Shown piece after piece: positions 7,209-61,744 of a stretch of 64,000 nt of DNA; within the stretch, counting starts at the first letter, position 1; every line of letters begins with the position of its first letter. The DNA is taken from contig KE561047.1 of assembly GCA_000442015.1 (NCBI GenBank), positions 203,341 through 267,340 on the forward strand, given 5' to 3'. Position numbers and translations under genes: made by a program. Source of the stretch: Rozella allomycis CSF55 (lineage: Eukaryota). The notes below the pieces were generated by a model. The model searched no databases and was not told where the DNA came from. It saw nothing but the letters and a program-made list of their open reading frames with translations.

Positions 7209-8124
7209 TTATTTAAGGATTGTATTGAAAATTAAAGCCAGGCGCAATGCAGCCTTTTGAATCAAGGATTCGACCAGAATAATCATTTGTTCATAATATT
7301 TTGTCGATATTTCCTCACCTTTAAAGTATTTTAACACGCCTCGGCAATTGTACCGTACCACTTCTGCAGCCCATGCATCAATCATACCCACATGAAAAGC
7401 TTCATTTGATGCCTTTAATGTCTCAGTGCTAAAAATTGAAGTAAGCGCTACAGAGGAGGCTCGAAAATACTTTTCTTTGAAACCTCCAAAATCGTCTTTT
7501 ATACGTTTCTATTATAATATACTCACTTTCCTACCCTTAACATCTTTGAATCCCATACAAAATGTAAATTAGAATGTTGACCTTCAAACAGAACTTTCAT
7601 TTTCATACCGCCTCTCTCATTTGTAAGCACTATTGATAACAATATAGTCTATTTACTATGCATGGGATTGTGGAGATCTCCAATTAAATGAATCATAAAC
7701 AACGCGGCCTCTTGTCTTTCCTTGGGAGAAACACCTTTTTTGGTCAATATAGCCGTGAAATTTTTTAAACTGGTAATTAAACAGCCATTTCCTTTGCATG
7801 TATCATAATTTAATAAACAACGGGAGGGCAGCTCAACATTGTTGTTCATGAAGTGATAGTGTTGAGTATGTATGTATTCTCTCTTCTTTTTGATTTTATC
7901 AGCCCATCTAGCTGCTTTTGTGAAAGGTAATTGATTTTCGGGCATCTTCATAATACTTTCCAACTTTTCCAGAGTTGCATTGTTAAGCATTCGAACAAAT
8001 AGATAACCAATCATTTCATGGCCTTCAAGAATATTGGCAAATATGATTTACCAATATCTCCGTAGCAAGAAATACGACAAACAAGGGCTAAAATTACGTA
8101 ATTAAGGCAATTCGATGGATTCAT
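7209..8124 (-). CDS. Secreted S1/P1 nuclease family protein
   Basis: Signal peptide, YGDIGHEMIG, AARWAD, HLIGDLHNPMH, NLHFVWD, KAALRLALIFN; 3 micro-introns. Confidence 0.85.
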
Positions 8125-9548: not shown

Positions 9549-12500
9549 ATGTCTGCTGAAGGAAAACGAAGCGGTTCTGCGGAGAAAAAGGGAGAAGATA
9601 ATGAATCTGGGTCCAATAACGTTCCAGTAGAGGCAATTCCACTCGACCCTAGGGTGGATTGGTTCTCTGAACGTGTATTGACCTCTCTACGTTTGAAAAC
9701 TGAAAAATGGAAGAAGATGACCACTGTCAAAGAGAGTGCGTAAGATGATTGATTGATATATAACTCATAGAGAGGCAATAGTCCAGTTTATGGACCAGAT
9801 TGATGTCCCAACCCTTTTGTTTACGGTTAACGCCAAGGAGGAAATAGTGCCATGCACTAGGTTTCCCGAGGTGTTAAAGAAGAAATCAATATATTTTATG
9901 AAAAAACCCAAGGCACCATCACCATTGGTAGCTCCTTTTGAACAGTACTTGATTTGGGGTGAGGTGCCTGCTGCTCCATTGGAGTTTTTGGCTACAATGC
10001 TGGATGAGATCTATGGACCTATGCTAGTCAATCCAAAGAATCTTGAAACTTGGCCTCAAGTTGTAGCGCATGATATGAACAATCATTTCCATCAGCTTCA
10101 GAGCAATGTTTACGTTATTGCTGGTCAAACAAAGGTAATGAAAATGAGTGTAATGAAGTAGGGAAAAACTTTATTGCCCATCCCACAAAACATTTTTAAT
10201 GAAGCTGGAGAAGTTGTGTTGGAGAAGAATGTTCTTCATACTATCGAGTCTGCAGTTATTGAATGGACTCATCAAATCCACATTGTTGTTAAAAGTAATT
10301 CGGCGAGTTTGAATGAAGATTCTAATCCTGGGCCGATGGTTGAGATTGAGTTTTGGGCTGCCAAGTTTGCTAATTTAAAGTCCATCTCACAGCAGCTTAA
10401 TTCAGAAAAGATACAAAAGGTTGCAAAGATATTGGAGGAGAGCAATTCAACGTATTACCCTGCGTTCCGTGGAATGTGTGACAAGGTGTCTAATGCATTG
10501 GATGAAGCTCAAGATATCAATACCTATTTGCAGGCTTTTAAACCGCACGCTGAGAGACTCAATGGTGTGTCTGAGTTTGCTGAGATTGCTAATGTGTTGC
10601 CTGCATTGTTTCATGTTGTTGGAATGGTTTGGAAATTGAGTCGTCATTACAGTAATCCGACCAGAATGCAAGTGTTGATTCATGAGCTCTGTAATGACAT
10701 TATTGAACAAGTAACATGAATGGCCTTTTGATGATGTAGGCAAGAACCTTTATCCAACCTGAAGATTTGTTTAAGAATCCACCAGAAGAGGCGTCATTAA
10801 AGTTGAAGACTGTTTTGAGAAAGGTTGAGTTGTTTAAATTTCTGTATGATGATCAATGCAAGAAGATGGTTGAGATTGATAAGCCATGGAATTTTGATAC
10901 CCGTTTGATATTCTTTAGAATGGATGGTTTTTATGAGAGAATAGAGAATATTTTGGAGCTTTTTGATACGATTGCAGAGTTTAATAGGTTGGAGAAGATT
11001 GAGATTGGAGGATCAAAGGGAAAAATCTTGAGTTCACAAATTGTTCAAATATTTACAGAATTTAGTTTGGCGTTGGCAAATTTAGCAAAAATTAAATATG
11101 ATATTTTGAATTTGAAGACTGAAGAGTTTGATATTGATTTGAAAAAGTTTCATCGTGTGATTGAAGATTTGGATAAACGTCTTGGGTAAGATTGTAGTGA
11201 TGATTAGAGTAGAACTGTGTTGTGTCAAGCATTTGATGATTGCTGTGGATTGATTGGTTGTTTCAAGTTGTTGGATACATTTTCTGGATTGTTGAATAGG
11301 GAACACATTCAGAGAGATTTTGAGAATAAATATTTTGACTTGTTGAAGATGTTTGGAGAGGAGATTGGAGTTGTTACAGGAATGTTTTTGAGACAGAGGG
11401 AGAATCCGCCAATCCACTATAACATGCCACCGATTGCAGGGGCCTTAACATGGACACATGAATTGAAGGACAGATTGACTAAATCAATGGAGAAATTAAC
11501 AACGGTAATAAACAAATTATTAATGAATGATAGTTTACGCATCCAATTTTGACAAGTTCAGAGGAGGCTATAATAATGCGTAAAAAGTATCAAGAAGTGT
11601 TGGAAATGATGGATCAACATGAGCAGGGAGTGTATGGCCATTGGTCTGGCAATATTGTTGATGATTCAGAGGAGAATTTAGGAAAGCCATTGTTGTTTAG
11701 AGATGAAAAGAATTTGCTTAAAGTTAATTTTGATCCAAAGGTTGTTGCACTGTTAAAGGAAGTCAAATATTTTAATGCGCTGACTGTTCAAGTGCCAGAG
11801 AAAGCTTCTAATGTGTATTCAAAGCAAGAAGAGTTGAGAGAGTTTCAGTTTAATTTGGAGTTTATAGTGAATCAGTACAATACAATTCAAACAACAATGT
11901 TACAAGTTGAGCAGCCGTTAATTCAAAGTAGACTTGAGGCTATTGATTCTCAATTTGAAGATGCCTTGAACAGAATAAGTTGGAAGAGTTCTGAGATTGG
12001 AGAGTATATAAAGTCTATTGGAATAAGTGTTGGAAATCTTGCTAATATTCAAAAGAATATGAAGAGCAATGTGGATCAAATCCAAAAGATTATGAAGAGA
12101 TGGAACAATGCACCATTGATAGAAAGAAAAGATACGAGAAAACCATTGAATGTTGATGAAAGAGATAACAAGTTGAATGCTACTTATGAGCAGATTAGAC
12201 AAGATGGAGAAAATATTCATAAACTGATTCAAGAAACGTTGAATATTTTACAAGTTGATCCAGAAGGAGAAGCATGGAAGAATTATTTAATTTTTGTTGA
12301 TAATATTTTGTTGGCTGGATTGCAAGAAACTGTAAAGACTTCATTGCAATATTTGTTGAACAATATGGATCAAGAATATTTATCAAACAATGAATTGTAT
12401 TCTTTATTTGAAAGTAAATTGGAGCTTGGCAGCAATGAACTAATATTTACGCCTCCAATGGAAGAAGAAGTATCAAATGGGTTCATGTCAATTATTCAAG

Positions 12501-15500
12501 CGTTGTTGTCTGATATTTACAAGATTAATAAATTGATTAAACCAGTCACTGGAAAAGATGTTGATTATATGATTGCTGTTACTGCTAGCAATGAATTGGA
12601 AGAAATGAGAAGTCGCATTTTAGATAAAGTTCGCCAAGTGTTGGAAAAATGTCATGAATACAAAGAAACGTTTGATCAGTTTGCTTATCTGTGGATTGAG
12701 AACAGACAAGATTTCTTGAAACAATTTGTTAAACAATTAAAGCAAAAGTTTGTGCAAGATGGATCTCCAGAAGAAGATTTTGTTGCTCCATTGTATCTGG
12801 ATCAATTTGAACAGCAAATTAAGAAATATGAAGATATTCACAAGACTGTTATGAGTTTGGAAGGCGATGTCACATTTTATGGCTGGTTTAAGATTGATGC
12901 CAAGCCACTGAAGCAAGCGTTGAATTTGGTAGTAAAGAAATGGTCGTATACATTGTCTAAATATTTGAGTGATGAGACAATAAAAACGTTGAATGAATTG
13001 AATTCGTTTATTAAGAGCACCAAGAAGGGACTGCAAGTGAAACCAGTTGAGGGTGATTATAGTGCGCTTGTGGCATCGATGGGATTGTTGTTGGCAGTGA
13101 AGCATAGATCGTCAATTGATAATTTGTTTGAGCCGCTGAGAAAGACTGTGAATTTATTAAAGCATCATGGAGTAGATACACCAGAAGAAGTGTTTAAATT
13201 TCTGAGTGATTTACCTGAAGAATGGAGTGATGTGAAGAAGATGGCTGTTGCGATGCGTGATTATGTAGCACCTTTGCAAGCACAAGAGGTTGATTCATTG
13301 CAAAAGAAGTGTAACACGTTTGAATACAAGATGCATTTGTTTAGAGAAGAATTTCGCAACAAGGCGCCATTTAAGTTTGATGTTGGGATTGAAAAGTGTT
13401 ACGAGTTGATAGATCAATGCCATGTTGATGTTTTGATAATTGAGAGTGAAGCAGCTGCAATGAAGTCGTCGGCTGATTTGTTTGAATTGGTTATACCGAG
13501 TTTTAAGCAGTTGGGAGATTGTAGAAGGGATATTGGAATGTTGAAGAGTTTGTGGGATTTGATTTCAATGGTGACGTATTTGTTTAATGAGTGGAAATCT
13601 ACGTTGTGGAATCAAATTGATACTGATGCGTTGGAAATCAGGTGTAGAGATTTGATGAAAGAGTTGAGAAAATTTGACAAGGAAATTAAAGGTAACTTTA
13701 CAATGTTTATTTAATATAGGTAATGTTGAAACTGGTTTATTATTAAAGGATGGGATGCGTTTAATGGATTGGATCAGATGGTGAAGGATATGATAACATC
13801 GTTGAGAGCAGTTGGAGAATTGAGAAGCAATGCAATTAGAGACAGACATTGGAAACAGTTGATGAAGACAACTGGAGTGACATTTACTTTAACAACAGAT
13901 ATGAAGTTTCAAGATTTGTTGAGTTTGCAGTTGCATAAATATGAAGATGATGTCAAGGGGATTGTGGATAGAGCTACGAAAGAGTTGAGTATGGAGAAAG
14001 TGTTGGGAGAGTTGGAAAAGACTTGGAATGTTATGGAATTCACCTATGAAGTTCATGACAGAACAAAAACACCCTTGTTAAAGTCATCTGAAGAATTGAT
14101 TGAAATATTGGAAGACAATCAAGTGTTGTTGCAGAATATGATGACATCAAAGTATGTTGCTTATTTCTTGGAAACAATTTCCAAATGGCAGAATATTCTG
14201 TCTACAGTTGATACAGTTGTTACGTTGTGGTTGGAAGTTCAAAAGACGTGGAGCCACTTGGAAAACATTTTCATTGGATCTGAAGACATTAGAACTCAAT
14301 TGCCAGAAGATACTAAAAGATTTGATGGAATTGATTCTGATTATAAGAAATTAATGGCTGAAGCATCGAAAACACCAAAGACTATTGAAGTTTGTTTGAA
14401 ACCTTCGTTATTTGAAACTTTGGAATCTTTGCAAGGTCAATTAGCGTTATGTGAAAAGAGTTTGGCTGAATATTTAGAAACAAAGAGACTTGCATTTCCA
14501 AGATTCTATTTCATTTCTAGCAGGTAATTTACTAAATAAGTGCTTAAATAAAGTGATTTGTTGGATATTCTAGCTAGAGGTAATCAACCACAAGCAGTGG
14601 CTATTCATTTACCAAAATTATTTGACAATTTAGCTGGCTTAAAGTTTAAAGGCGGCGCTGATTCTAAAACAGCTATTGGAATGTTTTCAAAAGAAGATGA
14701 ATATGTAGAGTTTTCAGAAGAATGTGAATGTGTTGGACCAGTTGAAGTTTGGTTAAACAGAGTTGTTGATGTAATGAGAAAGACATTGCGTCATTTAATG
14801 TCAGAGGCTGTTGTTACTTATGAAGAGAAGCCGCGTGAACAATGGCTGTTTGACTATCCAGCACAGATTTCTCTAGCTGGAACTCAAATTTGGTGGACAA
14901 CTGAAGTCAATGCTGCTTTTGCTAGGCTAGAAGAAGGCTATGAAAATTCATTGAAAGATTATTACAAGAAACAAGTTAATCAATTAACTGCTTTGATCAC
15001 TTTGATTCAGGGTGAATTAACTAAAGGGAATAGACAAATGATTATGACTATTTGTACGTTGGATGTTCATGCGCGTGATATTGTGGCAAAATTGATTTCT
15101 GAAAAGGCTGATAATGCTCAGTGTTTTAATTGGCAGTGTCAATTGAGATTGAAATGGGATGAAGAACAAACTGATTGTATTGCCAATATTTGTGATGCTT
15201 CGTTTCGTTACTCTTATGAGTATCTAGGAAACACTCCCAGACTTGTTGTGACTCCATTAACTGATAGATGCTACATTACATTAACACAATCTATTCATTT
15301 AATTATGGGTGGTGCACCTGCTGGTAATTTAATTCGTTATGATTGTAATTAAAGGCCCTGCTGGAACAGGAAAGACAGAGACTGTTAAAGATTTGGGTAG
15401 AGCATTAGCTATTATGGTGTATGTGTTTAATTGTTCAGAACAAATGGATTACAAATCTATTGGAAATATTTTCAAGGGATTGTCACAGTCTGGCACATGG

Positions 15501-18500
15501 GGCTGTTTTGATGAGTTTAATAGAATTGCTGTTGAAGTTTTGTCTGTTGTTGGAACTCAAGTTAAATCTATTCAAGATGCATTGAGAGCTAAAAAGAAGA
15601 GATTTGTATTTCAAGGTGAAGAAATTAGTTTATGCAAGACTGTTTCTTACTACATTACAATGGTAAGTAGAGGTTTAAAACTTAAATAGAATCCCGGGTA
15701 TGCTGGTAGAGCAGAGTTGCCTGAAAATTTGAAAGCATTGTTTAGACCTTGTTCAATGGTTGTACCTGATTTGCAAATGATTTGTGAAATTATGTTAATG
15801 GCTGAAGGGTTCCTGGAAGCATCAACGTTAGCAAGAAAGTTTACAACGCTGTATAGATTGAATAGAGAGTTGCTTTCCAAGCAAGATCATTATGATTGGG
15901 GTTTGAGAGCTATTAAATCAGTTTTGGTTGTTGCTGGTGGGTTGAAACGATCAGAACCAGGTGTTAATGAAGAACATGTTTTAATGAGAGCTTTAAGAGA
16001 TTTCAATTTACCCAAAATCGTTACAGATGATTTGCCAGTCTTTAATGGATTAATTTCTGATCTGTTTCCTAAAATTGATATTCCAAGAAAGAGAAATGAA
16101 CAGTTTGAAGATGATATTAGAAAAGCTACAATAGAAAGTGGATTGCAAACAGAAGAAAACTTTATTCTCAAGGTTGTTCAATTAGAAGAATTATTAGCTG
16201 TTAGACATTGCGTGTTTGTTCTTGGTAATGCTGGAACTGGAAAAAGTCAAGTTTGGAAAACGTTGGCTAAAACTTATAATAACATGGGCAAAAAGTGTGT
16301 TTATTCTGATTTGAATCCAAAAGCTGTTACTACTGATGAACTCTTTGGGTGTATTAATCCAGCTACACGTGAATGGAAAGATGGTTTGTTTTCCACTATA
16401 ATGCGCGACATGTCTTCTATTCCCAATACTGATCCCAAGTGGATTGTTTTAGATGGTGATATTGATCCCCAATGGATTGAATCTCTAAATACTGTCATGG
16501 ATGATAATAAGATACTCACACTTGCTTCTAATGAAAGAATTCCATTGAAACCGCACATGCGATTGTTGTTTGAAATTAGTGATCTGAAATATGCAACACC
16601 TGCTACTGTATCCCGTGCTGGTATTCTGTACATTAATCCAACTGATCTTGGTTGGTCTCCGTATGTTCAAAGTTGGTTGGAAAAGAGAGAAGATGCCGCT
16701 GAAAAGAGTAATTTAACTGTCCTGTTTGATCGCTATGTGAACCCTTGTTTAGATGTTATTCATTCAAAAAGATTTAAATGTGCTCCCGTTGAAGATTTCA
16801 GCATGGTACAAACACTCTGCTCCATTCTAGAAGCATTACTAACTCCAAAGAATACTCCCAAAGGTTGTGACAAGGAATGGTTTGAAATATATTTTGTGTT
16901 TGCTGCTGTGTGGGCATTCGGTGGTATAATGTATGCAGACACGATGGTTGACTACCGTGTCGAGTTTAGTAAATGGTGGAACACGGAATTCAAGCTGGTA
17001 AAGTTTCCACCAACTGGCACTGTTTTTGATTATTATGTTGACAATGAAACAAAGAAATTCATGCCGTGGGCTGATAAAGTTCCCTCTTTTACTTTTGATC
17101 CTGAAGTGCCGCTGCAAAATGTTCTGGTTAATACTGTTGAAACTTATAGAACTAAATATTTGCTGGACTTGCTGGCTGATAATGGGAAGCCTGTGTTGCT
17201 GATTGGACCAGCTGGTTCAGGTAAAACTGTGCTTATGCAAGACAAACTGGCTCAGTATGGCGAAGACAGGATGATTGTTAATATTTCATTTAATTTTTAT
17301 ACAACGTCCTTGTCGTTGCAGCAAGTGTTGGAGAAGCCCTTGGAGAAAAAGGCGGGAAGGAATTATGGACCCCCTGGTCAGAAGAAGTTGATTTACTTTT
17401 TGGATGATTTGAATATGCCTGAAGTTGACAAGTACGGGACAGCGCAGCCGCATACTATACTGAGACAGCATTTGGATTACAAGCATTGGTATGATAGAAG
17501 CAAATTGACGCTGAAAGAAATACACAATTGCCAATATGTAGCATGTATGAATCCAACTGCTGGTAGTTTTACGATTACTTCAAGGTTGCAAAGACACTTT
17601 TCAACGTTTTCTGTGAATTTTCCTGCAATGGAATGCCTTACGACTATTTATAATAGCATCTTGTCGCAGTTTCTGAGAGGGTTTGGAGAGAAGATTAATA
17701 AGAGCTGTGATAGACTTGTTAATGGAATTATAGCGTTGCATAAAAAGGTAAAATTAGTTGGCATTGATTAGAAAGGTTGCGTCTGTGTTTTTACCGACGG
17801 CTGTTAAATTTCATTATGTGTTTAATTTGCGAGACTTGTCTAGTATAATCCAGGGGATATTGTTTGCGCAGACGAGTGTTATAAAGGAGCCTATTGATTT
17901 AATTAGACTGTGGTTGCACGAAAGTACGAGAGTTTATGGGGACAAGCTGGTTAATGCTGATGATAGAAAGGCGCTGAGTGCGATACAGGCGGAGATTATA
18001 AAGAAATCGTTTGAAGAGATGGACCAGAAGAGTGTGTTTGCAGAGCCATTGGTGTTTTCGCATTTCGCTGGTGGGTTGAGTGAGCCAAAGTACATGTCGA
18101 TCAAGGATTGGGCGTCGTACAAGAAGATACTAGAGGAAGCGTTGGAGCAGTATCAAGAAGCGAATGCCGCGATGGATTTGGTGTTGTTTGAAGATGCGAT
18201 GAGCCATATATCGCGAGTGAGCAGGATACTAGAGTCACCGAGAGGAAATGGACTGTTGATTGGAGTTGGTGGCAGTGGCAAGCAGTCTTTGGCTAGATTG
18301 GCGGCGTTTATGAGTGGCAAGGATATCTTCCAAATAACGTTGAAGAAGGGGTACAGTAGTGCGGATTTGAAGTTGGATTTGGCCATGTTGTATCAAAAGA
18401 CTGGAATTAAGAAGCAGGGGGTTGTGTTTCTGTTGACTGATTCGCAGATTGCTGATGAGAGATTTTTGGTTTTGATTAATGATTTGCTTGCTAGTGGGAA

Positions 18501-21500
18501 TATTCCTGGACTGTTTCCGGATGAAGATTATGAGAATATTATTAATGCGATGAGGAATGAAGTTAAAGCTTTGGGACTTATTGATACGAGAGAAGCTTGT
18601 TGGGATTTGTTTATCAAGACTGTTAGAAAGAATTTAAAAGTAAATTGAATTTAAATGTTTAAAAAAGGTTGTGTTGTGTTTTAGTCCAGTTGGAAGTGCA
18701 TTGAGAAACAGATGCCGAAAGTTCCCAGCAATAGTTAATTGTACAATGATAGATTGGTTTTCGGAATGGCCGCAGGAAGCATTGTTGAGTGTAGCGCAGA
18801 GATTTATTGATAATTGTGATTTGGTGCCCCAAGAGTTGAAAGAGAGTGTTACAAAATTCATGGCGTTTGCGCATCAGAGTGTGAATGATGTGAGCAAAAA
18901 GTATTTGGAGAATGACAAGAGATACAATTATACAACACCCAAGAGCTTTTTAGAGTTGATTAATTTGTACAAGATAATGTTGGAAAAGAAGTCTACAGAG
19001 TTGCTGTCTAGTATGGAGAGATTGGAGAATGGGCTGGCTAAATTGCAGAGCACGGCGTCGCAGGTTGATGATTTGAAAGCAAAGCTTGCGAGCCAGGAGG
19101 TTGAATTGAGAGCCAAGAATGAGGAAGCTAATAGATTGATTGAAAGGGTTGCGATTGATACAGAAAAGGTTAATAAAGAAAAAGCTATTGCTGATGAAGA
19201 GGAGAGAAAGGTTGATGCGTTTGCAAAGGAAGTAGCAGAGAAGCAGCGCCAGTGTGCAGAAGATTTGCGGGCAGCTGAGCCAGCATTGGCAGCAGCAGAG
19301 GAAGCGTTGAATACATTGAACAAGGCTAATTTAACAGAACTGAAATCATTTGGATCGCCAACAGATGAAATTAAGAATGTAGTGGCGGCTGTTATTGTGT
19401 TGTTGTCTCCACCGGGAAAGATTGCCAAGGATAGATCATGGAAAGCTGGGAAAGCAATCATGGCCAAGGTGGATCAATTTTTGGAAACATTGATTAAATT
19501 TGACAAGGAGAATATAGACAAGAGTAATTTAGAGGCATTGGCACCGTATTTGAGTGATCCCAATTTCAATACAGAGTTTATAAAGACAAAGTCAGCGGCT
19601 GCAGCTGGGCTGTGTGGATGGGTGATTAATATAGTAAAGTATTTTGAAGTTTACTGTGATGTTGAGCCCAAGAGGAAAGCGTTGGAGCAAGCTAATTTGG
19701 ATTTGAGTGTAGCGCAGAATAGACTGGCAGAGATTCAGAATAAGATTATGGAGTTGAATAAGAATTTGAGTGATTTGAAGGCTAAATTTGAGAAAGCGAC
19801 GGCTGATAAATTGAGGTGTGAAGAAGAAGCAAAGAGAACGCAGGAAACTATTATATTGGCTAATAGGTTAGTTGGAGGGTTGGCGTCTGAGAATGTTAGA
19901 TGGGCTATTTCTGTGGACAAGTTTAAAGAGCAGCAGAAAACATTAACAGGTAATTTTAGTAGGTTTGATTTAATTAGGTATTTTAATAAACTTTCTATGA
20001 TGATTAGGTGATGTGTTACTAGCAGCAGCGTTCTTGTCTTATGTTGGATGTTTTACCAAGAAATATAGAACAGAGTTGATAACAGAGAAATGGTTGCCAT
20101 TTTTGAATGATCCCAGCAACAATATTCCCATGAGTTCTGATATTGATGCATTGAAGATATTGACTAATGATGCAGAGATAGCCAAGTGGTGTAATGAAGG
20201 GCTGCCGAATGATAGAGTGTCATTAGAGAATGCGACTATTTTTGTTAATTGCAAGAGATGGCCATTGATTATAGATCCGCAGTTGCAGGGGATTAGATGG
20301 GTGAAGAATAGAGAAAAGAATTTGAGAATAGTGAGACTTGGACAGAGAGGGTATTTGGATGTGATTGAGAAAGCAGTGAGTTCAGGGGATGTAGTGTTGT
20401 TGGAGGATATTGGTGTTAATTTGGATCCAGTGTTGGATGCTCTAATTGGAAGGAATACGATTAAAAAGGGAAAGTATATAAAGATTGGAGACAAGGAAGT
20501 TGAATATGATTCAAACTTTAGATTGATACTGCAAACGAGAATAGCCAATCCACATTATCCACCTGAAATACAAGCGCAAACTAGTTTGATTAATTTTACA
20601 GTGACGATTGCAGGGCTGGAAGATCAGTTGTTGGCTGATGTTGTTAATTCAGAGAGACCAGAACTAGAAAGAACCAAGGCAGAGTTGACTAAACAGCAAA
20701 ATGAATTCAAGATTAAATTGACAGAGTTGGAAGATTCGTTGTTGAGTAGACTGAGTGCAGCAGAGGGCAACTTTCTTGGTGATTATGCGCTTGTGGAGAA
20801 TTTGGAAACGACCAAGAGAACAGCGACAGAGATTGAAGTGAAAGTGGAGGAAGCTAAAAAGACTGAAAAGAAGATTAACGAGACGAGAGAGTTGTATCGA
20901 CCAGTGGCTGCACGGTCGTCATTGTTGTATTTTCTGTTGAATGATTTGAACCAGATTAATCCAATGTACCAGTACTCGCTAAATGCGTTTAAAGTTGTGT
21001 TTCAAGCTGCGATTAATTCAGCTGAAAAGAGTGAAGAGTTGAAGGAGCGTGTGTTTGCGTTGATTGACAATATAACATTTTCAGTGTTCAAATATACCAC
21101 TAGGGGGTTGTTTGAAAGAGATAAATTAATCTTTGTGACTCAAATGACGTTTTCTATATTGAAGCATCAGAATGATATAGATTTGGAGCAATTAGATTTT
21201 CTGTTGAGAGGCCCAGTGATATTGAATGTGAATAGTCCTGTTGAATGGTTGAATAACAATTCATGGGGGATGGTCAAGGCATTGTCTAATTTAGACTCAC
21301 TGAAGATTCTAGCGAGTGATATTGAGAATTCATCAAAGAGATGGAAAAAGTATTGCGAACATGAATCACCTGAAAATGAAAAGCTTCCACAAGAGTGGAA
21401 GAACAAGACTGCTTTAGAAAAACTTTGTATTATTAGAGCATTGAGACCTGATAGATTAACTTATGCTGTGAGAAATTTTGTTAAAGAAAAGATGGGCACA

Positions 21501-23414
21501 AAGTATATTGACAGTACAAGAGTTCCATTAAAGATTTCATTCCAAGAATCATCACCTGGCACTCCAATCTTTTTTATTTTATCCCCTGGTGTTGATCCAG
21601 TTAAAGAAGTTGAAGAATTGGGATTAAGTTTGAATTTCACTGAAGATAATGGAAAGTTTTATAATATTTCACTTGGACAGGGGCAGGAGGTTATTGCTGA
21701 ACAGAAATTGGATTTGGCGTATAAAGATGGTGGATGGGTCATGCTGCAGAATATTCATTTGACTGTCAAGTGGCTCCCTACATTGGAAAAGAAATTGGAA
21801 TCGCTCAGTCAAAATAGTCATCCTGATTTCAGAGTGTTTTTATCTGCTGAACCAAGCGCTGATCCTGCGTTCCATGTTATTCCAACTTCCATTCTCCAAT
21901 CTTCAATCAAAGTAATTGAATTTATTCTTTTAAACATTTAGATTACAAATGAACCGCCAACTGGAATGAATGCTAATATTCACAGAGCACTAGACAACTT
22001 TAAACAAGAAACACTGGAAATGTGCAGCAAGGAATCTGAATTCAAAACTATTCTATTCTCTCTTTGCTACTTTCATGCTGTTGTTTTAGAAAGAAGAAAG
22101 TTTGGCACACAGGGTTGGAATAAAGGGTATCCATTCAACACTGGTGATCTAACAATCTCTGTTAATGTTCTCTACAATTACCTTGAAGCGTCAGTCAAAG
22201 TGCCATGGGTTGATCTAAGATACATTTTTGGTGAAATCATGTACGGTGGTCACATTTCTGATGTAATTTAAACTATTATTCTAAATGTAGGATTGGGATA
22301 GAAGATTGTGTTCAGCTTATTTGGAAACATTTGTCAATGAACAGCTATTTGAAGGCGCAATGGAGTTCGCTCCTGGGTTTCCTGTTCCACCACCAAGCGA
22401 CTACAAGGAATACCATCGCTACATTGACGATCAACTGCCTCCTGAAACACCTTATCTATACGGTCTACATCCAAACGCTGAAATTGATGTATTGACTAAA
22501 ACTGCCGACAAGCTGTTCAAAACTATCCTTGAAATGCAACCACAAGAAACAGCTGGCGGCTCTGTTGTGTCAAGAGAAGAAAAAGTTAAACAGATTTTAG
22601 ATGATATTATTGAACGGTTGCCTGAATCATTCAACACTCTTGAAATGATCGCCAGAGTGGAAGAGAGAACGCCTTACATTTCAGTAGCTATCCAGGAATG
22701 CGATAGAATGGCTATTCTCACTAATGAAATCAGACGGTCTTTGAAAGAACTTGATTTGGGACTTAAAGGGGATCTCACAATCTCTGAAAACATGGAATCA
22801 CTAATGAATGCAATGTTCCTGAATGAAGTACCAAACAATCTCAACTAATATAATAGGTTCCTGAATCATGGAAGAAGATGGCTTACCAATCAACATACGG
22901 TCTCGCCCAATGGTACGCCGACCTCCTAACCCGCATCAAAGAACTAGAATCATGGGTCTCTGAATTCCAGCTCCCATCCGTCGTCTGGCTCTCCGGCTTA
23001 TTCAATCCCCAGTCATTCCTCACAGCGATCATGCAAACAACAGCCAGAAAGAACGAATGGCCTTTAGATAAAATGACGCTCAACGTTGACGTCACAAAGA
23101 AAACCAGAGAAGAGTTCAACGCACCGCCACGAGAGGGAGCGTACATTCATGGGCTGTTCATGGAAGGCGCTAGATGGGATACCGCGTCTGGTATGATCCA
23201 GGAATCGCTGTTAAAGGAACTCACACCATCTATGCCCGTTATTTATGTCAAGGCGGTGACTATTGATAAAAAGGATACAAAGGGCGTTTATGAGTGCCCG
23301 CTTTATACTACAAAGACTAGAGGACCCACTTTTGTTTGGACTTTTAATTTGAAGACTAAAGAAAAACCGCAGAAATGGACCCTGGCGGGAGTTGCTCTTT
23401 TATTGTCAATTTAA
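9549..23414 (+). CDS. Axonemal outer-arm dynein beta-type heavy chain (DNAH9/11/17 class), full length
   Basis: DHC_N1/N2, AAA1 [13 protein letters not shown]2 [11 protein letters not shown]3 [11 protein letters not shown]4 GVGGSGKQS, stalk, C-terminal [10 protein letters not shown]; about 14 intron positions join the ORF pieces. Confidence 0.95.
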
Positions 23415-23493: not shown

Positions 23494-24801
23494 TTATTGC
23501 TGCATTCTGGATGTGGCAGATTGAGTTAATTCCCTTTTAATCTCCTTTGAAATCAAATAATGCTCCTTTTTGCCAGCAAGACTCAATAGAACCTCCTTTT
23601 GTTCATCTGTTAAATCATCCTTGTATCTAATCAACCAAAACATAATCAAACAACCTTTGACAAAACACTAGAAACGCTTGATGCCACAGAACAGGCAATT
23701 CACGAGAATCATTCGCAAATCTCGCAAAATGATACACCAATGAATCAATAACTTGGAACGGCATCGCATATTTCTTGTCCAAAAGACATTTAATAAATAT
23801 ACTACATGCTGGTGAATAGTCCATCTCGGCAAGTTTCAGTAAAGCTGCACTGGAATGCAACACGGGAATGCTCACCTTGGTTATCACGGAGCCTACTATT
23901 GTCGCCTCACGCAGTGTGCATTGGTCTTCAACTAACGGGAGTATGATACCCTTGAAAAAGGCCGCTGGCTTGTACACTGATTTCTTTAAGGCATTGTATA
24001 AATGCACGTTAAGTTTTGATGTTTCTTTAATATTTATACGCACATGTTCAAGCAAAATGTTGAAATAGAATCTATTCATCAAATACGTAATAAATTACAC
24101 TTGGGACATTCTGGCGTTCAAGTTGGATGCGAATATTCTTGTGGCTTCATAGACAGCATGCGGTGTCCATTCCATCGGATTAGTTAAAGCCAGAACAGAT
24201 TCCCTGCTGAATGCAAATCAACATTATTACCAGTTCTTTAATGAAGGAATAACCTTGAAAGCTTTGGGCAATTTGCCGCTTTTATATCTAGACAAGAGCA
24301 GCCCAACTTTGGAGTAAACTTGGACTATCTTTGGATGCAGATTTGAATTCTTGGCAGCCTCAGTCTGTGGCAAATTGATTCTATCGACCAACTGGTCAGC
24401 CTGGATTCCACTCACAAACTGGTTGAATATTTGCTCCTCCTGTGGATCTATTGTATTCGCATTTTCGTCTTCATAGTCACTCCATTCGTCATCAACTTCA
24501 TTGTCACTGTCCACGGCCATTGTCGATTCAAACACGGCCGGCATCTCCATCTTGTCTTTTGATGATTTATTTTCTTCGTCAAAAATTTCTTCTTGCTGTT
24601 TCTTTACAGCCTTCATTATTCTTTTTGATGTGACGGCGTCTATCTAGAGTTTCGTTTTAAAGAATTTGGTACCACATTTTCTTCCAAATCGGAATCAGAT
24701 TCTTGGTTTTTGGTTTTATTCTTCATTGTGACATATGTATCACGCTCTAACTGGGCCTGCAAAGGAGGCAAACGCTTGGAAGAAGATTTGCGAATTTTCA
24801 T
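23494..24801 (-). CDS. ENP1: Bystin / Enp1
   Basis: [52 protein letters not shown]. Confidence 0.93.
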
Positions 24802-24813
24802 TATTACAGGGGT

Positions 24814-25235
24814 ATGCACGGGTGCAGCTTGGAACCAGCTATTTTTGCACATTTGAGCTGCAGAAACGGTAGGAGAAGGTTACTGGCAAAGTAAATGTAT
24901 TAAATTGGGTTTAAAAAGGTACGAAAATTATGTTTCTTGGAAAGCAGAGTTTTACCGATTACGCTCAACGAACCTATTGCGATTGAACTAGCTATAAATG
25001 AAAAAAAGAGATCGATTTTAATTTGTGATACTTCATTAATTGAAAATGGTTTGTTGGAAAATGAAGTCTACTTCTTTATTGGTGATGTTGATTGGGTAGA
25101 AATTTTGAAAAAATATTCTAGGAAAAAAGATATTTCAATATCAAAGTTGCGAGAAGAGTAAATATTAAATGGCCAGATGATGTTCTTGTTTGGCAAAAGG
25201 TAGCATCAAAGGTCCTTCACTATGGAAATTCTTAA
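24814..25235 (+). CDS. Small OB-fold-like protein, possibly TEN1 (CST complex)
   Basis: Spliced ~110 aa: MHGCSLEPAIFAHLSCRNGRRRLLAKVLPITLNEP...ILICDTSLIENGLLENEVYFFIGDVDWEKRYFNIKVARRV...; resembles the Ten1 pattern by eye only. Confidence 0.4.
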
Positions 25236-25856: not shown

Positions 25857-26015
25857 TTAATAAAAATTTCTTCACACAAAACAACTGTTTTCTATCGTGA
25901 TCATTTTNGGGCTACAAATTTTATCTTTTAATATAATTTTATAATCGATTGCATAATAATTAATATAATTTTATAATCGATTGTATACGTTTTAAGATTC
26001 GCTACACTATGGGAN

Positions 26016-28043
26016 TAATGCAATAGAAGGAATATTGAAGAGATTGAATATGGAATATGCGCATGAATATACGATTCCTGTTGAATTGAAGAAAGTATAT
26101 TCGAAGTGTGACAGTCCAGTGATAGGGAGTCCGGAGCACCAAGAAATGAAAGATGTACCATACAANAAGAGTGTAGACGATGTTGTTAGATATATTGAAA
26201 CAAAATATAAAATAAATTTATTAGGAAAGATTAACTGGTTCTTGGGAAAAGGAATTGAAAGAGATGGAAATGAATTGAGAATGAGTCAAAAGAGTGCAAT
26301 AGAAGGAATATTGAAGAGATTTAATATGGACGATGCGAATGAATATACAATTCCTGTTGAACTGAAGAAAGTATATTCGAAGTGTGACAGTCCAGTGATA
26401 GGGACTCCGGAGCACCAAGAAATGAAAGATGTACCATACAGACAAGCAGTCGGAAGTTTGATTTATTTGGCGAAGTGTACAAGACCAGATATAGCATATG
26501 CAGTGAGTCTTGCGAGCAGATTCTTATCGAATCCAGGGAAAGAGCATTGGTTGTTAGTCAAGCGAATCCTCAGATACTTAAAATACACTAAAGAATATAG
26601 TTTAATAATGGATGGAATAAATGAAGATAAATTTATTTGTCAAGGATATGTTGATGCCGATNAAGTGTAGAAGACGTTGTTAAATAAATTGAAACGAAAA
26701 ATAAAATAAATTTATTAGGAGAGATAAACTGGTTTTTGGGAATAGCAATTGAAAGAGATAGAAATGAATTAACAATGAGTCAAACGAGTGCAAAAGACGG
26801 AATATTGAAGAGATGTAATATGTAAGATGCGAATGAATACACGATTCCTGTTGAACCGAAGAAGGTATACTCGAAGTGTGACAGTCCAGTGATAGGAAGT
26901 CCGGAGCACCAAGAAATGAACGATGTACCATATTGCCAGGCAGTTGGAAGTTTGATTTATTTAGCAAAGTGTACAAGACCAGATATCGCNGTAAAACCAT
27001 GCGAATCATAGTAGAAGAAAAAGAAGCAAAGTCTGGGTGCCAACCAGTTCACAAGAAGATTACCGAAGCTTTTGGTAAGAAAAGAAAATCAAGCACTACA
27101 TCTCTAAATGAACATGACACGACCACCGATGTAGTCCTTAAACCAACCAATAATGAAGTTAACTCATCCACTGAGAAGGATCTTTTATTGAAAATTTATN
27201 CGCATATGAATTAAGTCTTGCGAGCAGATTCTTATCGAATCCAGTGAAAGAGCACTGGTTACTAGTCACGCGAATTCTCAGATACTTAAAATACACAAAA
27301 GAATACCGTTTGATAACGAATGGAATAAATGAAGATAAATTTATTTGTCAAGGATATGTTGATGCCGNTAAAGGATAATGTTGCTCCACCTGTGAATATG
27401 ACTCCAGCCGCTGAAGTACCTCTAGCTGATGTTAAGACCAGATAGAGCATATGCAGTGACTCTAGCATTGGTTGTTAGTCAAGCGAATTTTCAGATACTT
27501 AAGAAACACTAAAGAATATAGTTTGATAATGAATGGAATAAATGAAGATAAATTTATTTGTCAAGGATATGTTGATGCCGATTGGGCGGCTGACAATGAA
27601 TCAAGAAGAAGTATCTTTTCAAGATAAATGGAAACTAAGTATCATGGAAAAGTCAAAGGCAAGCAACAGTAGCACTATCAACAGTTGAAGCGGAATATAT
27701 GGCATTATCAAGCGCATAGCAGGAACCATTGTGGATTAACAGTTTAATGAGTGAATGGGAGATATCTTTTGAANACATTATGGATTAAGAGTTGAATGGG
27801 TGAATTGGAGATAACTTTTGAAGCGGAATTAAGTTGTATGAAGATAACAAAGGAGCGATAGCATTGACCAAAGANTAGCAGGAACCATTGTGGATTAACA
27901 GTTTAATGAGTGAATGGGAGATATCTTTTGAAGGGGGATTTAAGTTGTATGAATACAATAAAGGAGCGATAGCTTTGACCAAGGAAACGAGCGGGAGAAG
28001 TAGGAGCAACCACATTGACATCAGGTATCACTTCATTACCGCT
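26016..28043 (+). mobile_element. Ty1/copia LTR retrotransposon pol fragments (RT C-terminus, RNase H), degenerate and internally duplicated
   Basis: PYRQAVGSLIYLAKCTRPDIAYAVS, KRILRYLK, GYVDADWA, ALSTVEAEYMALS, YEDNKGAIAL, HIDIRYHF; several partial copies separated by single Ns. Confidence 0.92.
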
Positions 28044-28598
28044 TACTTGTTATGCAAACCCGGCTATATTTCGCCCTTATGGGATTGCTAGTGTGAAAAT
28101 GAAGTGCAACAAAGCTTATCTGATGGTGTCTAGGGAAGAATCAGGGTATAAGAAGAAATCGGAAAATAGATAAACATTCCGTTACTAATCTCAACTCTTT
28201 ATAAGTTTTAATAAGTTTCTTTATTAAGTGACGAATCAGTTATAAGAAAAACCAAATCAATCCATTAAAAGAAACCACATTTATTAAAATTAAGAACCTT
28301 TGGCCTCACATTTGTCAAAACATTTCTTCATTTTTTGATCCCGAGACTTCATAAGTATGTTTTCTATCGTGATCATTGTTTAACATTAGTTTGAAGTCTG
28401 AAGATCCATGGAAAGTGTGATTTCGTCCAAAATTAAATCTATCGTTCGTGACCTTCATTTACAGTCTCCAAATCCCGAATCTATAAAAAATAAACAATAA
28501 ATTTCTTCACACATTTCTTAGCTCATTTAAATAAATTTATTCACACAAAACAAGTTTTTCTATCTTTATCATTTTTTGACATTAGTGTGATTTCGTCT

Positions 28599-28702
28599 NN
28601 NNNNNNNNNNNNNNNNNNNNNNNNNNNNNNNNNNNNNNNNNNNNNNNNNNNNNNNNNNNNNNNNNNNNNNNNNNNNNNNNNNNNNNNNNNNNNNNNNNNN
28701 NN
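28599..28702. other. Assembly gap (run of N)
   Basis: Continuous Ns. Confidence 0.99.
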
Positions 28703-28754
28703 TCACTTACCGTTTTCCAGTTTCCTCCTACGAATCCCGAATCTCAATTATCAT

Positions 28755-29496
28755 GTTGTAATAAATAAATGTGTACAAATTTTATCTTTTAATTAATATA
28801 AATTTATAATCGATTGTATACTATTTAAGATTCGCTACACTATCATGGACTCAAAAGTAGGTGTAACAAGCGATTCTTATGGCTCCAAAACGCTAATAAA
28901 AAAATAAAATAACAATTTATTGTTTTAATTTAATTTATTTATAATTAGTCACAAATGTGCCATATTAANATTTAATTTAATTTATTTATTATAATTAGTC
29001 ACAAATGTGCCATATTAATGAGCAACCCAACATGCACCTTAAAAGACATCCGCCACCTATATCTCAACAACTACCTTCACTATAGGGGTTGAAAATAAAT
29101 ATTACTTCGTATATTGGATGTTCTGAGTTCTTAGACCAAATTTGGGAGGANGTTGTCATAAATAAATGTCTACAAATTTTATCTTTTAATTAATATAAAC
29201 TTATAATCGATTGTATACTTTTTAAGATTCGCTACACTATCATGAACTCAAAAGTAGGTGTAACAAGCGATTCTTATGGCTCCAAAGCGCTAATAAAAGA
29301 AATAAAATAACAATTTATTGTTTTAATTTAATTTATTTATAATTAGTCACAAATGTGCCATATTAATGAGCAATCCAACATGCACCTTTCAAAACTTCCG
29401 CCACCTATATCTCAAGAACTACCTTTACTATAGGGGCTAAAAATAAATATTGCTTGGTATATTGGGTGTTCTCTCTTCATAGACCAAATTTGGGAG
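28755..29496. repeat. Tandem duplication of a ~345-395 bp AT-rich non-coding unit; partial third copy at ~25911-26012
   Basis: 28755-29150 and 29152-29496 align (gttgt.ataaataaatgt.tacaaatttt...agaccaaatttggga). Confidence 0.9.
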
Positions 29497-29724: not shown

Positions 29725-31193
<1,469 letters not shown>

Positions 31194-35222: not shown

Positions 35223-36985
35223 TTATTTCATAAACATCATTCCGGATGTATCTGCCACCGATGCAATTTTTGTAAATGCATTTGCCATAGCTGCTGTCCT
35301 GTAATCAGTTTTCTATATCAAATCGTTTTAATCAATACCTTTTCCTCTGCTGTTTTGATTGTCTCGTGACAAGCGTTAATCATCGTATCTTCTAATCCAG
35401 AATATACCAAATGATGCTCTTCTGCTCCGTTTATTACTTCACGCTTCACTTTTGGATCCAATTGTTTTCCTGTAGCTTCTTCAATTACATCTATCATTCT
35501 ATGCTTGCTATATTCTTCCCATCGCTTGTTTAACCGACCAAATCGTACATGGCTTAAGTTTTTCAACCATTCAAAATAAGAAACAACAACTCCACCCGCA
35601 TTCATTAGCAGATCCGGTAAAATTATTATTCCTCTGCGTAAGAGGACATCATTGGCTCCTGGAGTCGTGGGTCCATTGGCTGCCTCCGCCACGATCTTAG
35701 CCTTTATTTTGTCTGCATTCGACATTGTTATTTGTTGTTCCAAGGCGGCTGGTATCAGTATGTCACATTCACGCTCCAACAATTCTTTTGAATTTTCAAC
35801 AGTGATCGCTTTCGTATATCCTTTAAAAGATCCCTTATTGGAAGTGAAATATTTTTGTAAATCATCAATATTTAAACCTTTTTCGCTATTAATTTTAACG
35901 TACCTTGTTCATTGTAAACTCCAAAATCCCTTTCCGCAATTCCAATAACCTTTGCTCCATGAGATGAGAAGAATTTGGCGGTCCAATATCCCACATTACC
36001 AAAGCCCTGGACGATCACTCGAACACCATTGATACTACCGCTCAGACCTGTTTTCTTTTGCACAGTTGGATCCTTTAAGAACTCTCTGACTCCATAAAAT
36101 ACACCGAGTCCAGTAGCTTTTCTTGGATAAGAATGTGATTTACCTTCATTTCGGCCGCGAACACCACCTTGATTTATTGGTTTGCCTGTTACACATGCCA
36201 TGGAGTCGACGTCTGTGCTATAAAATTGCCTATAAGTATCTTGTATCTATTGAAAAATTCCTAATGAATATACCCAAGACATTTCAACAGGTCCCGTGCC
36301 AACATCAGGAGCTGGCACATCTGTTCCCGGACCTATAAAGTTCTTCTGACATAGTTCCATTGTATATCTTCTTGTAATTCTTTCAAGATAGTCCGGCGAC
36401 CATTTCTTAGGATTAATGCAGATGCCCCCTGTTATATTTGAATACAGCCAAAACATACCTTTTGCTCCACCAAATGGTACATCTACAACTGCACATTTAT
36501 ATGTCATTAGAGCCGCTAATGCTGAAACTTCTTCAAGGTTTACAGCCTTTGAAAATCTTATTCCTGGTCTTTTTGCACTTTTTATATTACCCCCTTTGCA
36601 TGGTAGTCTGTGCTTTGAATGTTGCACTCGGTAGGCTTTTAGTACCTCCCATGTTCCATCGCATCGCTATTTAAAATCATTATTAAGCTGTATACCTTAA
36701 TAGGAAATGTAACGCTCAAAGCACAATCTGGAGACCGAATGTGTGCCATCGTTGCTTCCGATATTGTATCTTTCAACAGGTTCGTAGCGTTGTCAACATA
36801 TCTTTCTACACTTTGCAAAAAGCTATTTAGTGTTTTGGTTTTAATTACTCTGGTTCTCCATTTGGGTGGATGGTGTTTCCGTTGGTAGAGTATAGTTTGC
36901 TGAAAAACGTATTGACTTGTCTAAAATTATATCGATGACGACTTTAATAATGAAGAATGATAACAATTTACATAGAATTCAGCAT
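35223..36985 (-). CDS. Mitochondrial glutamate dehydrogenase, animal (GLUD1)-type
   Basis: [74 protein letters not shown]. Confidence 0.93.
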
Positions 36986-37069: not shown

Positions 37070-37984
37070 TCATGATACAGGCGTTTCTTCATTATTTTCT
37101 ACTTTTCGTTTTGGAATGACTTTTTCGAACGCTTTCCCCCAATCGCCGTCACAATCGATAACTTGTAACAATATCTCGAAAACTATACTTAATGGCTTAA
37201 AGTTTTACCTTGGTGTACGGTTAAAACTTTACTACCAGAAAGTTTTAAATATTCTCCAATTGGAAGTCTTGCAGTTGAAATGCCTTCTTTATTTGCTTTG
37301 TCAAAACATAATGATTTATGACGATTTCTATCAACGATACCCCCAATGATGTAAACAGCGTCTTCATTCAATTTATCAATAGTGTTTTCAGAATCTGCAG
37401 TTAAATAAACTATTTTATCCTTTGGGAATAGAGATGTGTATGATTCGCTCGAAAAAGACATGGTCTTACTTGAAAAAGAACTTATGTATTACTGTCCATT
37501 TGTCATGCGTGGGATAAGACTTCAATAGAGACTCTTTTGAACCACCGTTTAATGAGCATACGTGCAAATTGACCGGCTGCAAGATTTTGCGGTTTGCAGA
37601 ATAGCATCTTGAAATCTGGGAAGACAAACTTTTTATTTCCTTTCAAATCTCTTTTATGAACATACTTGTGGGAGCATGAGGTCATCAAAAGACATATCGA
37701 TGGCTATGTTAAACTTTGGCAGCTTTTGTTCTATCTTCGCCGGTTTTGGCGGTCTTTCCTCTGGATGATTTTTATAATACTCTTGTTTTTCTTTTCTACT
37801 TTATAGCATTAAGAATACCTTTTTTCTTTTCTTTTTCCTTGAGTCTCTTTTTTTCACGCCATTCCTTTTTAGTTTCCTCAAATCGTTCACGTTTCTTTTG
37901 TTTCTTCAATTGGTTTTTCGATAGTTCTTTTTCTTCTACTTTTTCTACTTTCTCTTTTTCATGCGATTTCACATCCGTAGACAT
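37070..37984 (-). CDS. TRM10: tRNA (guanine-N1)-methyltransferase Trm10
   Basis: [49 protein letters not shown]. Confidence 0.92.
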
Positions 37985-38001: not shown

Positions 38002-38233
38002 ATGAGTGAGTTTCTTAACCAAGAATGTAGAATCACAGTCAGAGACCAAAGGACTTTTGTTGGAAGATTAATCGCGCTAGATTATCAGAAGAATGTTATT
38101 TTAGAAAATACTCAAGAATTTAATCCAGGTAAAGAAAAATTAAAATATTCTCAAAGAGCTAAATGAAGAGCGCGAGTGTGGATGCATTATGATTAATGGT
38201 TATGATATTGTCAAATTTGAGTGTCGTGAATAA
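38002..38233 (+). CDS. Sm/LSm-fold protein (Mak31/NAA38-like); absent from ORF track
   Basis: Spliced MSEFLNQECRITVRDQRTFVGRLIALDYQKNVILENTQEF...ERECGCIMINGYDIVKFECRE*. Confidence 0.75.
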
Positions 38234-38339
38234 CATGTATGTAAATAGAATAATAAAGAGGGATGAGTTTAGTGTTCTGAGTTATCGGCTACAGTATTTA
38301 TTGGTTTCTATGGCTACACACACTGCTTTCAGCGACAAA

Positions 38340-41300: not shown

Positions 41301-41755
41301 CTTTTAATCACATGCCTTATAGAGATTCAGGAACTTTTACTTTAACTGCACAAGAAGATCTTCAGGCTTTAATGAACGATCAAATCATCAAAATACAAAC
41401 GTTGAAGAATTCTCCACTAGCTAGAAACCTAGAAGATTTAATTGCAGAAAGTGAACAAACGTTGATGAATATTAAAGAAACTTGGAACGAATGGCTCAAA
41501 GTTCAGTCTGGTTGGTTACGTTTAGAACCGATTTTCAGTTCTGAAGAAACGTCGCAACAAATGCCCCTAGAGAGTCGTAATTTTAAACAAGTTGATAAAA
41601 TATGGAGAGAAATTATGACTCAATGCTTGGAAACACCCGAAATACTGATTATGATAAAGACGCCAAATCTATTGGAGAAATTAAAGGAATGCAACTCTTT
41701 GATCGAAGAAATTCAAAAAGTACGCAACGAGCAGAATCATGAAACTCCTCAATAA
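38340..41755 (+). pseudogene. Inner-arm dynein heavy chain (DNAH3/7/12 class) N-terminal tail only; no motor domain; in-frame TAG at 39248
   Basis: IKRSIVDYVL, PVPWS, PGLKNRHW, WLKVQ..W..LEPIFSSE; ORF ends just after EEIQK, before the usual GL..YLE.KR..FPRF; 3 micro-introns. Confidence 0.65.
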
Positions 41756-44695: not shown

Positions 44696-45119
44696 ACTTG
44701 CCTGCGCCACAGAGATCGCTATGATGATATTATAGGGTGATGACATGCTTGAGAATTTCTATGGTTTGAATTAAAAACGATCTTGAAAAAGATAGGAAAG
44801 ATATATACTGACTTGACTTGAGTCACCCTGGAATTAGAATTTACGTTTCTTCAAATTAATACTTTTGACGGTCGAAGTTCGACTGTCAAAAGTTAATGTT
44901 TTTTCTTTGGAAATGGGAGTCGAGGTTTTAAGTTTTCAACAAGGACGTTAAGACGTATGTGTTAATTTTAGCAAGGTAAGTTTGGAGTAAGACTTGAGTT
45001 TTAGAGGGAAAATATATGGTCGCGGGAAAATCAAAATTTTAGTCAATTCAATAGTGTATAATCTATTTAATAGATATTTAATTTGTTCATTCGAAATAGT
45101 TTTAGGAAATTTCGCTTCA

Positions 45120-52991: not shown

Positions 52992-53025
52992 ACAACTGTA
53001 CCTAAATTTACAATTTATTCATCTA

Positions 53026-54378: not shown

Positions 54379-54558
54379 GTGTTTGACTGAAATTAGCGCA
54401 CCAGCCACATAACGACACCCACAATGATTATAATAAACAATTTTCCTTCTTCGCATTTATTATTTATATTTGATATTCGAATTACTAAACTTGTATTTTA
54501 AAAGGCTGCATTATGCGTTTGTAATTAGTGGCGGGGCAACGGTATTACGGAATAAACA

Positions 54559-61479: not shown

Positions 61480-61744
61480 TGAAATTTCGGATATTGAAGT
61501 ACGACAATTCTGATGAATTCAATAATTGATTAAGAAAATATTAAATAAATGCTGATATTTAGCAAATTAAAACTGTAATGAATTTGTCATTTACTGCATG
61601 AATATTTCCAGATTTAACAATGGTCAACAATTACAATAGTTGCATAAAAATTTATTATCAAACATAAAAATTGTCATCATTAATGTCATAGATTTGAGTG
61701 GTAACACAGCTGTGAACCATTAAAGGAAATTTCTGAAACTCAAG

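Follow-up and report, generated by a model that had tools for sequence, protein, structure and literature searches.

The dynein gene of the window

Rozella allomycis is a parasitic fungus and sister to the microsporidia. The window analysed here, a 64-kb stretch of its DNA, carries on the forward strand a gene for an axonemal outer-arm dynein beta heavy chain, interrupted by short introns and by two longer intervening sequences that each consist of two introns placed end to end (referred to here as doubles). The features of the gene that bear on the first double are as follows.

9771..23411 (+): axonemal outer-arm dynein beta heavy chain gene, with a stop-free spliced model of 4394 codons
9740-9770 (+): candidate further intron of the dynein gene, 31 nt
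11534..13691 (+): upstream dynein exon, tail/linker (PF08385, PF08393, PF25007), ending in ...KEIK plus the G of a split codon (phase 1)
13692-13748 (+): double 1, 57 nt made of two GTA...AG units without spacer
13692..13719 (+): unit 1 of double 1, a complete 28-nt micro-intron, GTAAC...TATAG, within the 27-31 nt range of the single introns
13720..13748 (+): unit 2 of double 1, a complete 29-nt micro-intron, GTAAT...TAAAG, starting directly after the AG of unit 1
13749..14523 (+): downstream dynein exon, linker (DHC_N2), beginning GA|TGG..., read as (G)WDAF

The model was obtained by removing 14 intervening sequences, namely 12 verified single introns and the two doubles, and its exons use standard stop codons. 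The 4394-aa product is collinear over thousands of residues with three metagenome loci (L002, L005 and L006). Among solved structures, the axonemal outer-arm chains DNAH17 (1064 bits) and DNAH9 (1057 bits) match it best; full-length collinear similarity together with the dynein domain set places the host gene with the DNAH9/DNAH17 type. The proteins nearest to the downstream exon 13749..14523 are chytrid-like dyneins, with 74-82% identity. A ciliate source for the window was rejected in view of the standard stop codons, of the animal chains DNAH17 and DNAH9 as best solved matches and of the chytrid affinity of the nearest proteins; a dicyemid source, considered because of GC content and intron size, was rejected on that chytrid affinity and on the enolase match described below. 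From 10001 to 22000, the dynein coding strand shows a strong G-over-C skew of 0.19-0.43 per 2 kb, compared with values near 0 for most other parts of the window, and the antisense strand of the gene contains many long spurious open frames. A second dynein-heavy-chain-like gene was found at approximately 38006-41752 (+), with a DHC_N2 linker (E 1.7e-83) in the exon 40310-41752. The frame closes at 41752 without having reached an AAA module, and 41769 is the start of a convergent gene; the locus could be a pseudogene, a truncated paralog or the product of an assembly break.

The introns of the homologous genes were also compared. The closest DNA relative with introns (L001, GC 0.44) carries dynein introns of about 55-61 nt and has three intron positions in common with the window, near residues 121, 452 and 550, and none at the site of double 1. 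Likewise, the intron-rich locus L017 has no intron at the site of double 2. Five loci (L002, L003, L005, L006 and L010) contain no introns anywhere in the gene; they may be transcripts and are for this reason uninformative on intron position. Four others (L004, L008, L009 and L012) have a break some 10 residues upstream of the site of double 1. It should be noted that one dynein intron of L001, at 7211-7265 of that locus (55 nt), contains an internal TAG|GT that splits it into 25 and 30 nt, which is probably due to chance.

Removal of all 57 nt at double 1

As originally predicted, and exact to the base in the sequence, the 57-nt intervening sequence is a 28-nt and a 29-nt intron fused directly to each other, so that the exon between them has zero length and the joint is AG|GTA at 13719|13720. 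When it is left unspliced, in-frame stops are encountered within the 57 nt. All GT..AG combinations within 13680-13760 were enumerated, and only three parses keep the frame open: removal of the 57 nt as a whole, removal of 28 and 29 nt, and removal of 28 and 14 nt. The last leaves a 15-nt exon, adds five residues and requires a 14-nt intron. Removal of the 57 nt yields KEIKGWDAF, and at this junction the alignment is gap-free in 6 out of 6 homologous proteins, which read KEIK[GA]W[DE].. or KESRAWD, and in 5 out of 5 aligned relatives (L001, L002, L005, L006 and L010). Removal of one unit alone shifts the frame. The parse enumeration and the gap-free homologs thus bear out the further claim of the prediction, that EIK-G-WDAF is read in frame after excision of both units and that the frame is lost after excision of one. 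These results demonstrate the need to remove all 57 nt at this site.

A single RNA run was compared with the window (share 0.00). It gave seven pieces of 32-63 nt with 90-95% likeness and no joints, and is no evidence either way.

A second double and a candidate third

Two further tandem arrangements were considered in the window.

19950..19977 (+): unit 1 of double 2, 28 nt
19978..20007 (+): unit 2 of double 2, 30 nt, following unit 1 without spacer; joint AG|GTA (19977|19978)
24891..24947 (+; end at 24944 or 24947): candidate third double, 28 nt plus 26 or 29 nt, frame-consistent

Double 2 (19950-20007, 28 + 30 = 58 nt) lies in the same dynein gene as double 1. Exactly one residue separates the exons that flank it in 4 out of 4 relatives (L002, L005, L006 and L010), which indicates that 58 nt are removed at this site and not 49. 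When the dynein frame is followed with introns of at most 33 nt, a zero-length exon is required at two places, doubles 1 and 2. Both of the dynein intervening sequences longer than 33 nt are therefore accounted for by the same anatomy, being exact sums of normal units (28 + 29 and 28 + 30) with the joint AG|GTA, and both are in phase 1 at AG|G.

The candidate third double would connect an ATG at 24814 with an orphan open reading frame at 24904-25158, the frame being kept only when both units are out. For this open reading frame, searches found neither a Pfam family nor a solved relative, and gave no match among 1.84 billion representatives. The putative first exon (24814-24890, +) overlaps an opposite-strand exon at 24673-24879 (-), the 5' exon of a gene that we take, from a reading by eye, to be bystin. 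The prediction had counted three doubles; those at 13692 and 19950-20007 are confirmed by homology, and the third, at 24891, is only frame-consistent.

Other matches were rejected as doubles. The one at 37183-37235 (-), in a gene read by eye as presumably TRM10, is one 26-nt intron preceded by coding sequence; those at 61978-62030 and 62901-62952 are each one intron plus exon sequence, and that at 36429-36486 (-) lies inside an open exon. A further match to the tandem pattern GTA..AG|GTA..AG is found at 44955-45004. Elsewhere in the window, 25908-29151 contains eleven isolated single N bases and one gap of 104 N, and the open reading frame at 26167-26661 is presumably, as judged by eye, a fragment of a retroelement polymerase.

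Lengths and splice signals of the single introns

The 12 single introns of the dynein gene that were checked by homology measure 27-31 nt; the junction alignments are gap-free, with an indel of 2 residues close to one of them, where the sequence is variable. The enolase gene at 29725-31166 (-) has five introns of 27, 28, 27, 30 and 28 nt, which were mapped exactly, residue for residue, onto the published 433-aa NCBI protein 'enolase [Rozella allomycis CSF55]'; the match assigns the window to R. allomycis CSF55 or to a strain identical with it. One of them (30337-30363, -), of 27 nt, has no in-frame stop and reads through as nine extra residues. Taken together, 17 out of 17 homology-verified single introns (12 from dynein, 5 from enolase) fall at 27-31 nt, and the doubles, with 57 and 58 nt, are outside this range, the sample being small. 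No intron of 32-56 nt was found among the 19 verified intervening sequences of dynein and enolase.

An approximate catalogue based on open reading frames, with a length limit of 33 nt, contains 74 introns of 24-32 nt (mode 26-29 nt) across the 64-kb window. In the enolase gene, the same method mis-set 2 out of 4 introns by a few bases and missed the stopless 27-nt intron. Since stopless introns with a length that is a multiple of three escape calling from open reading frames, intron counts based on frame only are underestimates. The predicted length of about 24-31 nt for the other introns is mostly borne out, with the verified singles at 27-31 nt. Gene models built by chaining open reading frames joined everything when introns of up to 200 nt were allowed, and recovered only dynein when scored by dynein codon bias; with limits of 75 nt and 33 nt they were usable and approximate. 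Candidate long introns of 40-75 nt all vanish with proper gene splitting or with introns of at most 33 nt. The two long open reading frames at 51702-54456 (-) are two separate MFS genes: they are intron-free MFS_1_like transporter paralogs (51702-53018 and 53029-54456, -) arranged in tandem 10 nt apart. Short introns have been reported in this organism: two introns of about 30 nt are described in the S23 gene of R. allomycis (PMC6349667). In a comparative study, the lowest median intron length among fungi is 29 bp (PMC8042348).

The sequence logo of the 74 introns inferred from open reading frames shows GTA at the 5' end, A at +4 in 68%, [T/A]AG at the 3' end and an AT-rich interior. As there is little sequence information beyond GTA(A), [T/A]AG and AT-richness, spacing probably contributes to the pairing of the sites. 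In 67 out of 74 catalogued introns the 3' site is the first AG ending at least 22 nt from the 5' end, and in the other 7 the bypassed AG is only 3-5 nt upstream of the 3' site. If a double left in one step, a well-placed AG would have to be passed over by 29-30 nt, an argument that is partly circular since the catalogue of single introns was built with the 33-nt length limit.

Placement of the joints, similarity of the halves and origin of the doubles

Sequences were drawn from the interior composition of the introns of the window, with 400,000 draws per length. An internal AG|GTA with both halves of 24-33 nt occurred in 0.0042 of the draws at 57 nt and in 0.0037 at 58 nt, giving a joint chance of about 1.5e-5 for such splits in both doubles; the expected frequency of a central split is about 0.4% for AG|GTA and about 1.2% for AG|GT. 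The window contains 263 AT-rich GTA..AG stretches with a length of 50-65 nt. Such a split occurs in 6 of them, at four loci: the two dynein doubles, the candidate third double and one intron-plus-exon case. The motif AGGTA is absent from all 74 catalogued single introns. The placement of AG|GTA in the doubles is non-random, far beyond chance.

When the two halves of each double were compared, similarity scores of 9 (double 1) and 7 (double 2) were obtained, values reached by 4% and 13% of 2701 background pairs, respectively. In both doubles the five bases of the joint, AG|GTA, are preserved, even though the similarity of the halves has fallen nearly to background. If the halves are old duplicates, the joint bases stayed intact while the interiors diverged. 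AGG microhomology is found at both borders of both doubles, and with an AGG at each border, slippage could have duplicated a whole intron. A probable origin of the doubles is that one micro-intron was duplicated in tandem between the border AGG triplets, or that a second intron was gained at AG|G. As a separate observation, the first units of the two doubles (13692-13719 and 19950-19977) are unusually alike, with a score of 15 that is reached by 1 out of 2701 background pairs, and the second units are not alike (score 4). A shared origin of the first units of doubles 1 and 2 is possible.

Folding was examined as a means of shortening the introns by structure. The folding energies resemble those of shuffled sequences (z-scores of 0.14, 0.18, 0.03 and -0.22), and in this comparison no stable structure able to loop out half of either double was detected. 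A search of Rfam found no family in either double, and hence no intron-hosted small RNA of the families that it covers; two weak matches were obtained elsewhere in 13000-20500.

Comparison with known compound introns

Ubx is part of the history of recursive splicing at ratchet points. Recursive splicing across zero-nucleotide exons is described at ratchet points of long Drosophila introns (bioRxiv 10.1101/006163). The doubles share with ratchet points the juxtaposition of AG|GT in one intervening sequence, a 5' site that the first step would regenerate and the absence of any remaining exon sequence; the juxtaposed AG|GT is present at both doubles, and the regenerated 5' site is there as far as the bases tell. 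Nevertheless, the Drosophila introns extend over tens of kilobases and are subdivided, whereas the Rozella doubles are 57-58 nt long and each of their segments is one micro-intron of modal length. The Drosophila steps are proven by intermediates and lariats, those of Rozella being predicted from genomic sequence. Moreover, unlike at Drosophila ratchet points, either unit of a Rozella double could go first.

The second system of comparison is the stwintron, a complex intervening sequence described in fungi, including Lipomyces (PMC7138796; see also PMC9024468 and PMC5639578). In L. starkeyi, one-step and two-step removal coexist, and new internal sites can arise within an existing intron or by small duplications of it (PMC7138796). 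Like stwintrons, the doubles combine fungal U2-type introns in one compound intervening sequence; consecutive removal is a fact for stwintrons and is proposed here for Rozella. In a stwintron, however, a splice element of the outer intron is broken up by the inner one, which makes the order obligatory, and the units have the ordinary fungal size. By contrast, the Rozella units of about 28 nt neither overlap nor nest and are complete beforehand: they share no base, and the GTA and AG of both are intact, with no donor, branch or acceptor interrupted. As their units do not nest or interrupt each other's signals, the doubles lack the defining feature of the stwintron. Viewed as ordinary U2-type GT-AG introns, they have borders that restore the frame and lengths that lie outside the distribution of the organism.

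Narrow micro-introns are described in Paramecium and Nyctotherus (about 25 nt), Stentor (15-16 nt) and dicyemids and myxobolids (22-27 nt) (PMC13644364, PMC5014332). Rozella resembles these systems in its tight length mode (27-30 nt) and in signals reduced to about GTA...AG. The texts of this literature that were examined mention no introns abutting across a zero-length exon and no class of twice the modal length. More generally, no description of abutting micro-introns, or of such a second length class, was found in the texts of the literature searched.

Proposed stepwise removal of the doubles and alternative explanations

As each unit of a double has the sites and the size of a whole normal intron, one would most simply expect the splicing machinery to treat it as an intron, and the end-to-end anatomy suggests two successive cuts. 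Given the AG|GTA joints and the normal-length units in both long intervening sequences, functional internal sites and stepwise removal appear most likely. With moderate confidence, we propose that the 57 nt are two complete abutting U2-type micro-introns, most likely removed by two successive splicing reactions. A spliceosome on one unit would occupy the sites of the other, and one unit would go first; as the branch/AG region of unit 1 lies directly beside the unit 2 donor, two spliceosomes could not sit there at once and removal would be sequential. If unit 1 went first, the upstream exon would be joined to the GTA of unit 2, generating a 5' site anew as at a ratchet point; the resulting sequence, ...AAAG|GTAATG, is by its bases a normal GTA(A) donor for R. 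allomycis. If unit 2 went first, the AG of unit 1 would stay beside the downstream exon. The unit remaining after the first step would be an ordinary intron. That the internal sites are used, and in which order the steps would follow, we infer from this anatomy.

The principal alternative, quite possible although on balance we doubt it, is that the 57 nt are a single intron removed in one step, in which the outer 5' site is used together with the AG and the branch point of the second half. The internal AG|GTA would then be an unused relic of a tandem 28-nt duplication, for example by slippage between the border AGGs. One-step removal gives an mRNA identical to that of two-step removal, so that the mature message fits both readings. 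The outer sites are canonical and their use yields the correct, homology-matched protein; introns of about 55-61 nt are spliced from the corresponding gene in relatives such as L001; and the border AGG microhomology of both doubles, as well as the slight likeness between the two units of double 1 (score 9, in the top 4% of the 2701 background pairs), are in agreement with a duplication, which, if recent, would yield AG|GTA without selection for its use. Against this, AG|GTA is preserved in full at the joint of both doubles, between halves near background similarity, a well-placed AG would have to be ignored although its spacing of 28 nt from the GTA is the norm for verified introns, and in the two genes checked no verified unsplit intron exceeds 31 nt. 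Longer unsplit introns may exist elsewhere in the genome, the sample being two genes in one 64-kb window, and their presence would remove the argument that the organism needs doubles.

Two other explanations carry far less weight. A double could be a regulatory device, in which removal of one unit leads to a frameshift and an early stop, so that partial splicing would lower dynein output through nonsense-mediated decay. As read from the sequence, either half-spliced product meets a stop within about 20 codons, and the window contains a gene at 61724-63999 that we take, from its translation as recognised by eye, to encode the decay helicase UPF1. Any retained micro-intron in the dynein gene would nevertheless have the same effect, without the need of a double, and the presence of two doubles in one constitutive flagellar motor gene follows no obvious regulatory logic; we therefore consider this explanation improbable. 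Still less credible, to the point of being nearly negligible, is a chance resemblance or a mis-modelled gene, with part of the 57 nt coding as a micro-exon, or an assembly artefact. Although the 28 + 14 nt parse keeps the frame open with its 15-nt exon, its five extra residues are absent from all six homologous proteins and all five aligned relatives and it needs the 14-nt intron; furthermore, the tandem pattern has a chance of about 0.004 per site and a second site shows it as well.

Stepwise removal of the tandem units is hence the reading that we retain. The anatomy required by the original prediction of two-step removal at the AG|GT point, abutting sites and normal unit lengths, is present beyond chance in both dynein doubles, which gives that prediction partial support; removal in two steps is plausible and the most likely reading. 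The accompanying claim that the spliceosome handles only units of about 28 nt is a stronger one, which rests on the gap at 34-56 nt among 19 intervening sequences of two genes. In its boldest form, which we find rather unlikely, splice sites would be paired by a length ruler of about 27-31 nt, longer intervening sequences being accepted only as whole units placed end to end and removed sequentially. Lengths would then be quantised, and a second class of about 55-60 nt (perhaps also of about 85 nt), always with AG|GT at the unit borders, would be expected genome-wide.

Significance

If the units of a double are indeed excised in succession, no recursive splicing on a smaller scale would have been described so far. 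It would mean that the spliceosomes of micro-intron organisms measure length, which bears on why intron lengths in such genomes are so narrow and on how splice sites are recognised with little sequence information. If the doubles are removed in one step, they would be a minor curiosity of intron duplication. The doubles also offer a concrete picture of how micro-introns multiply or duplicate.
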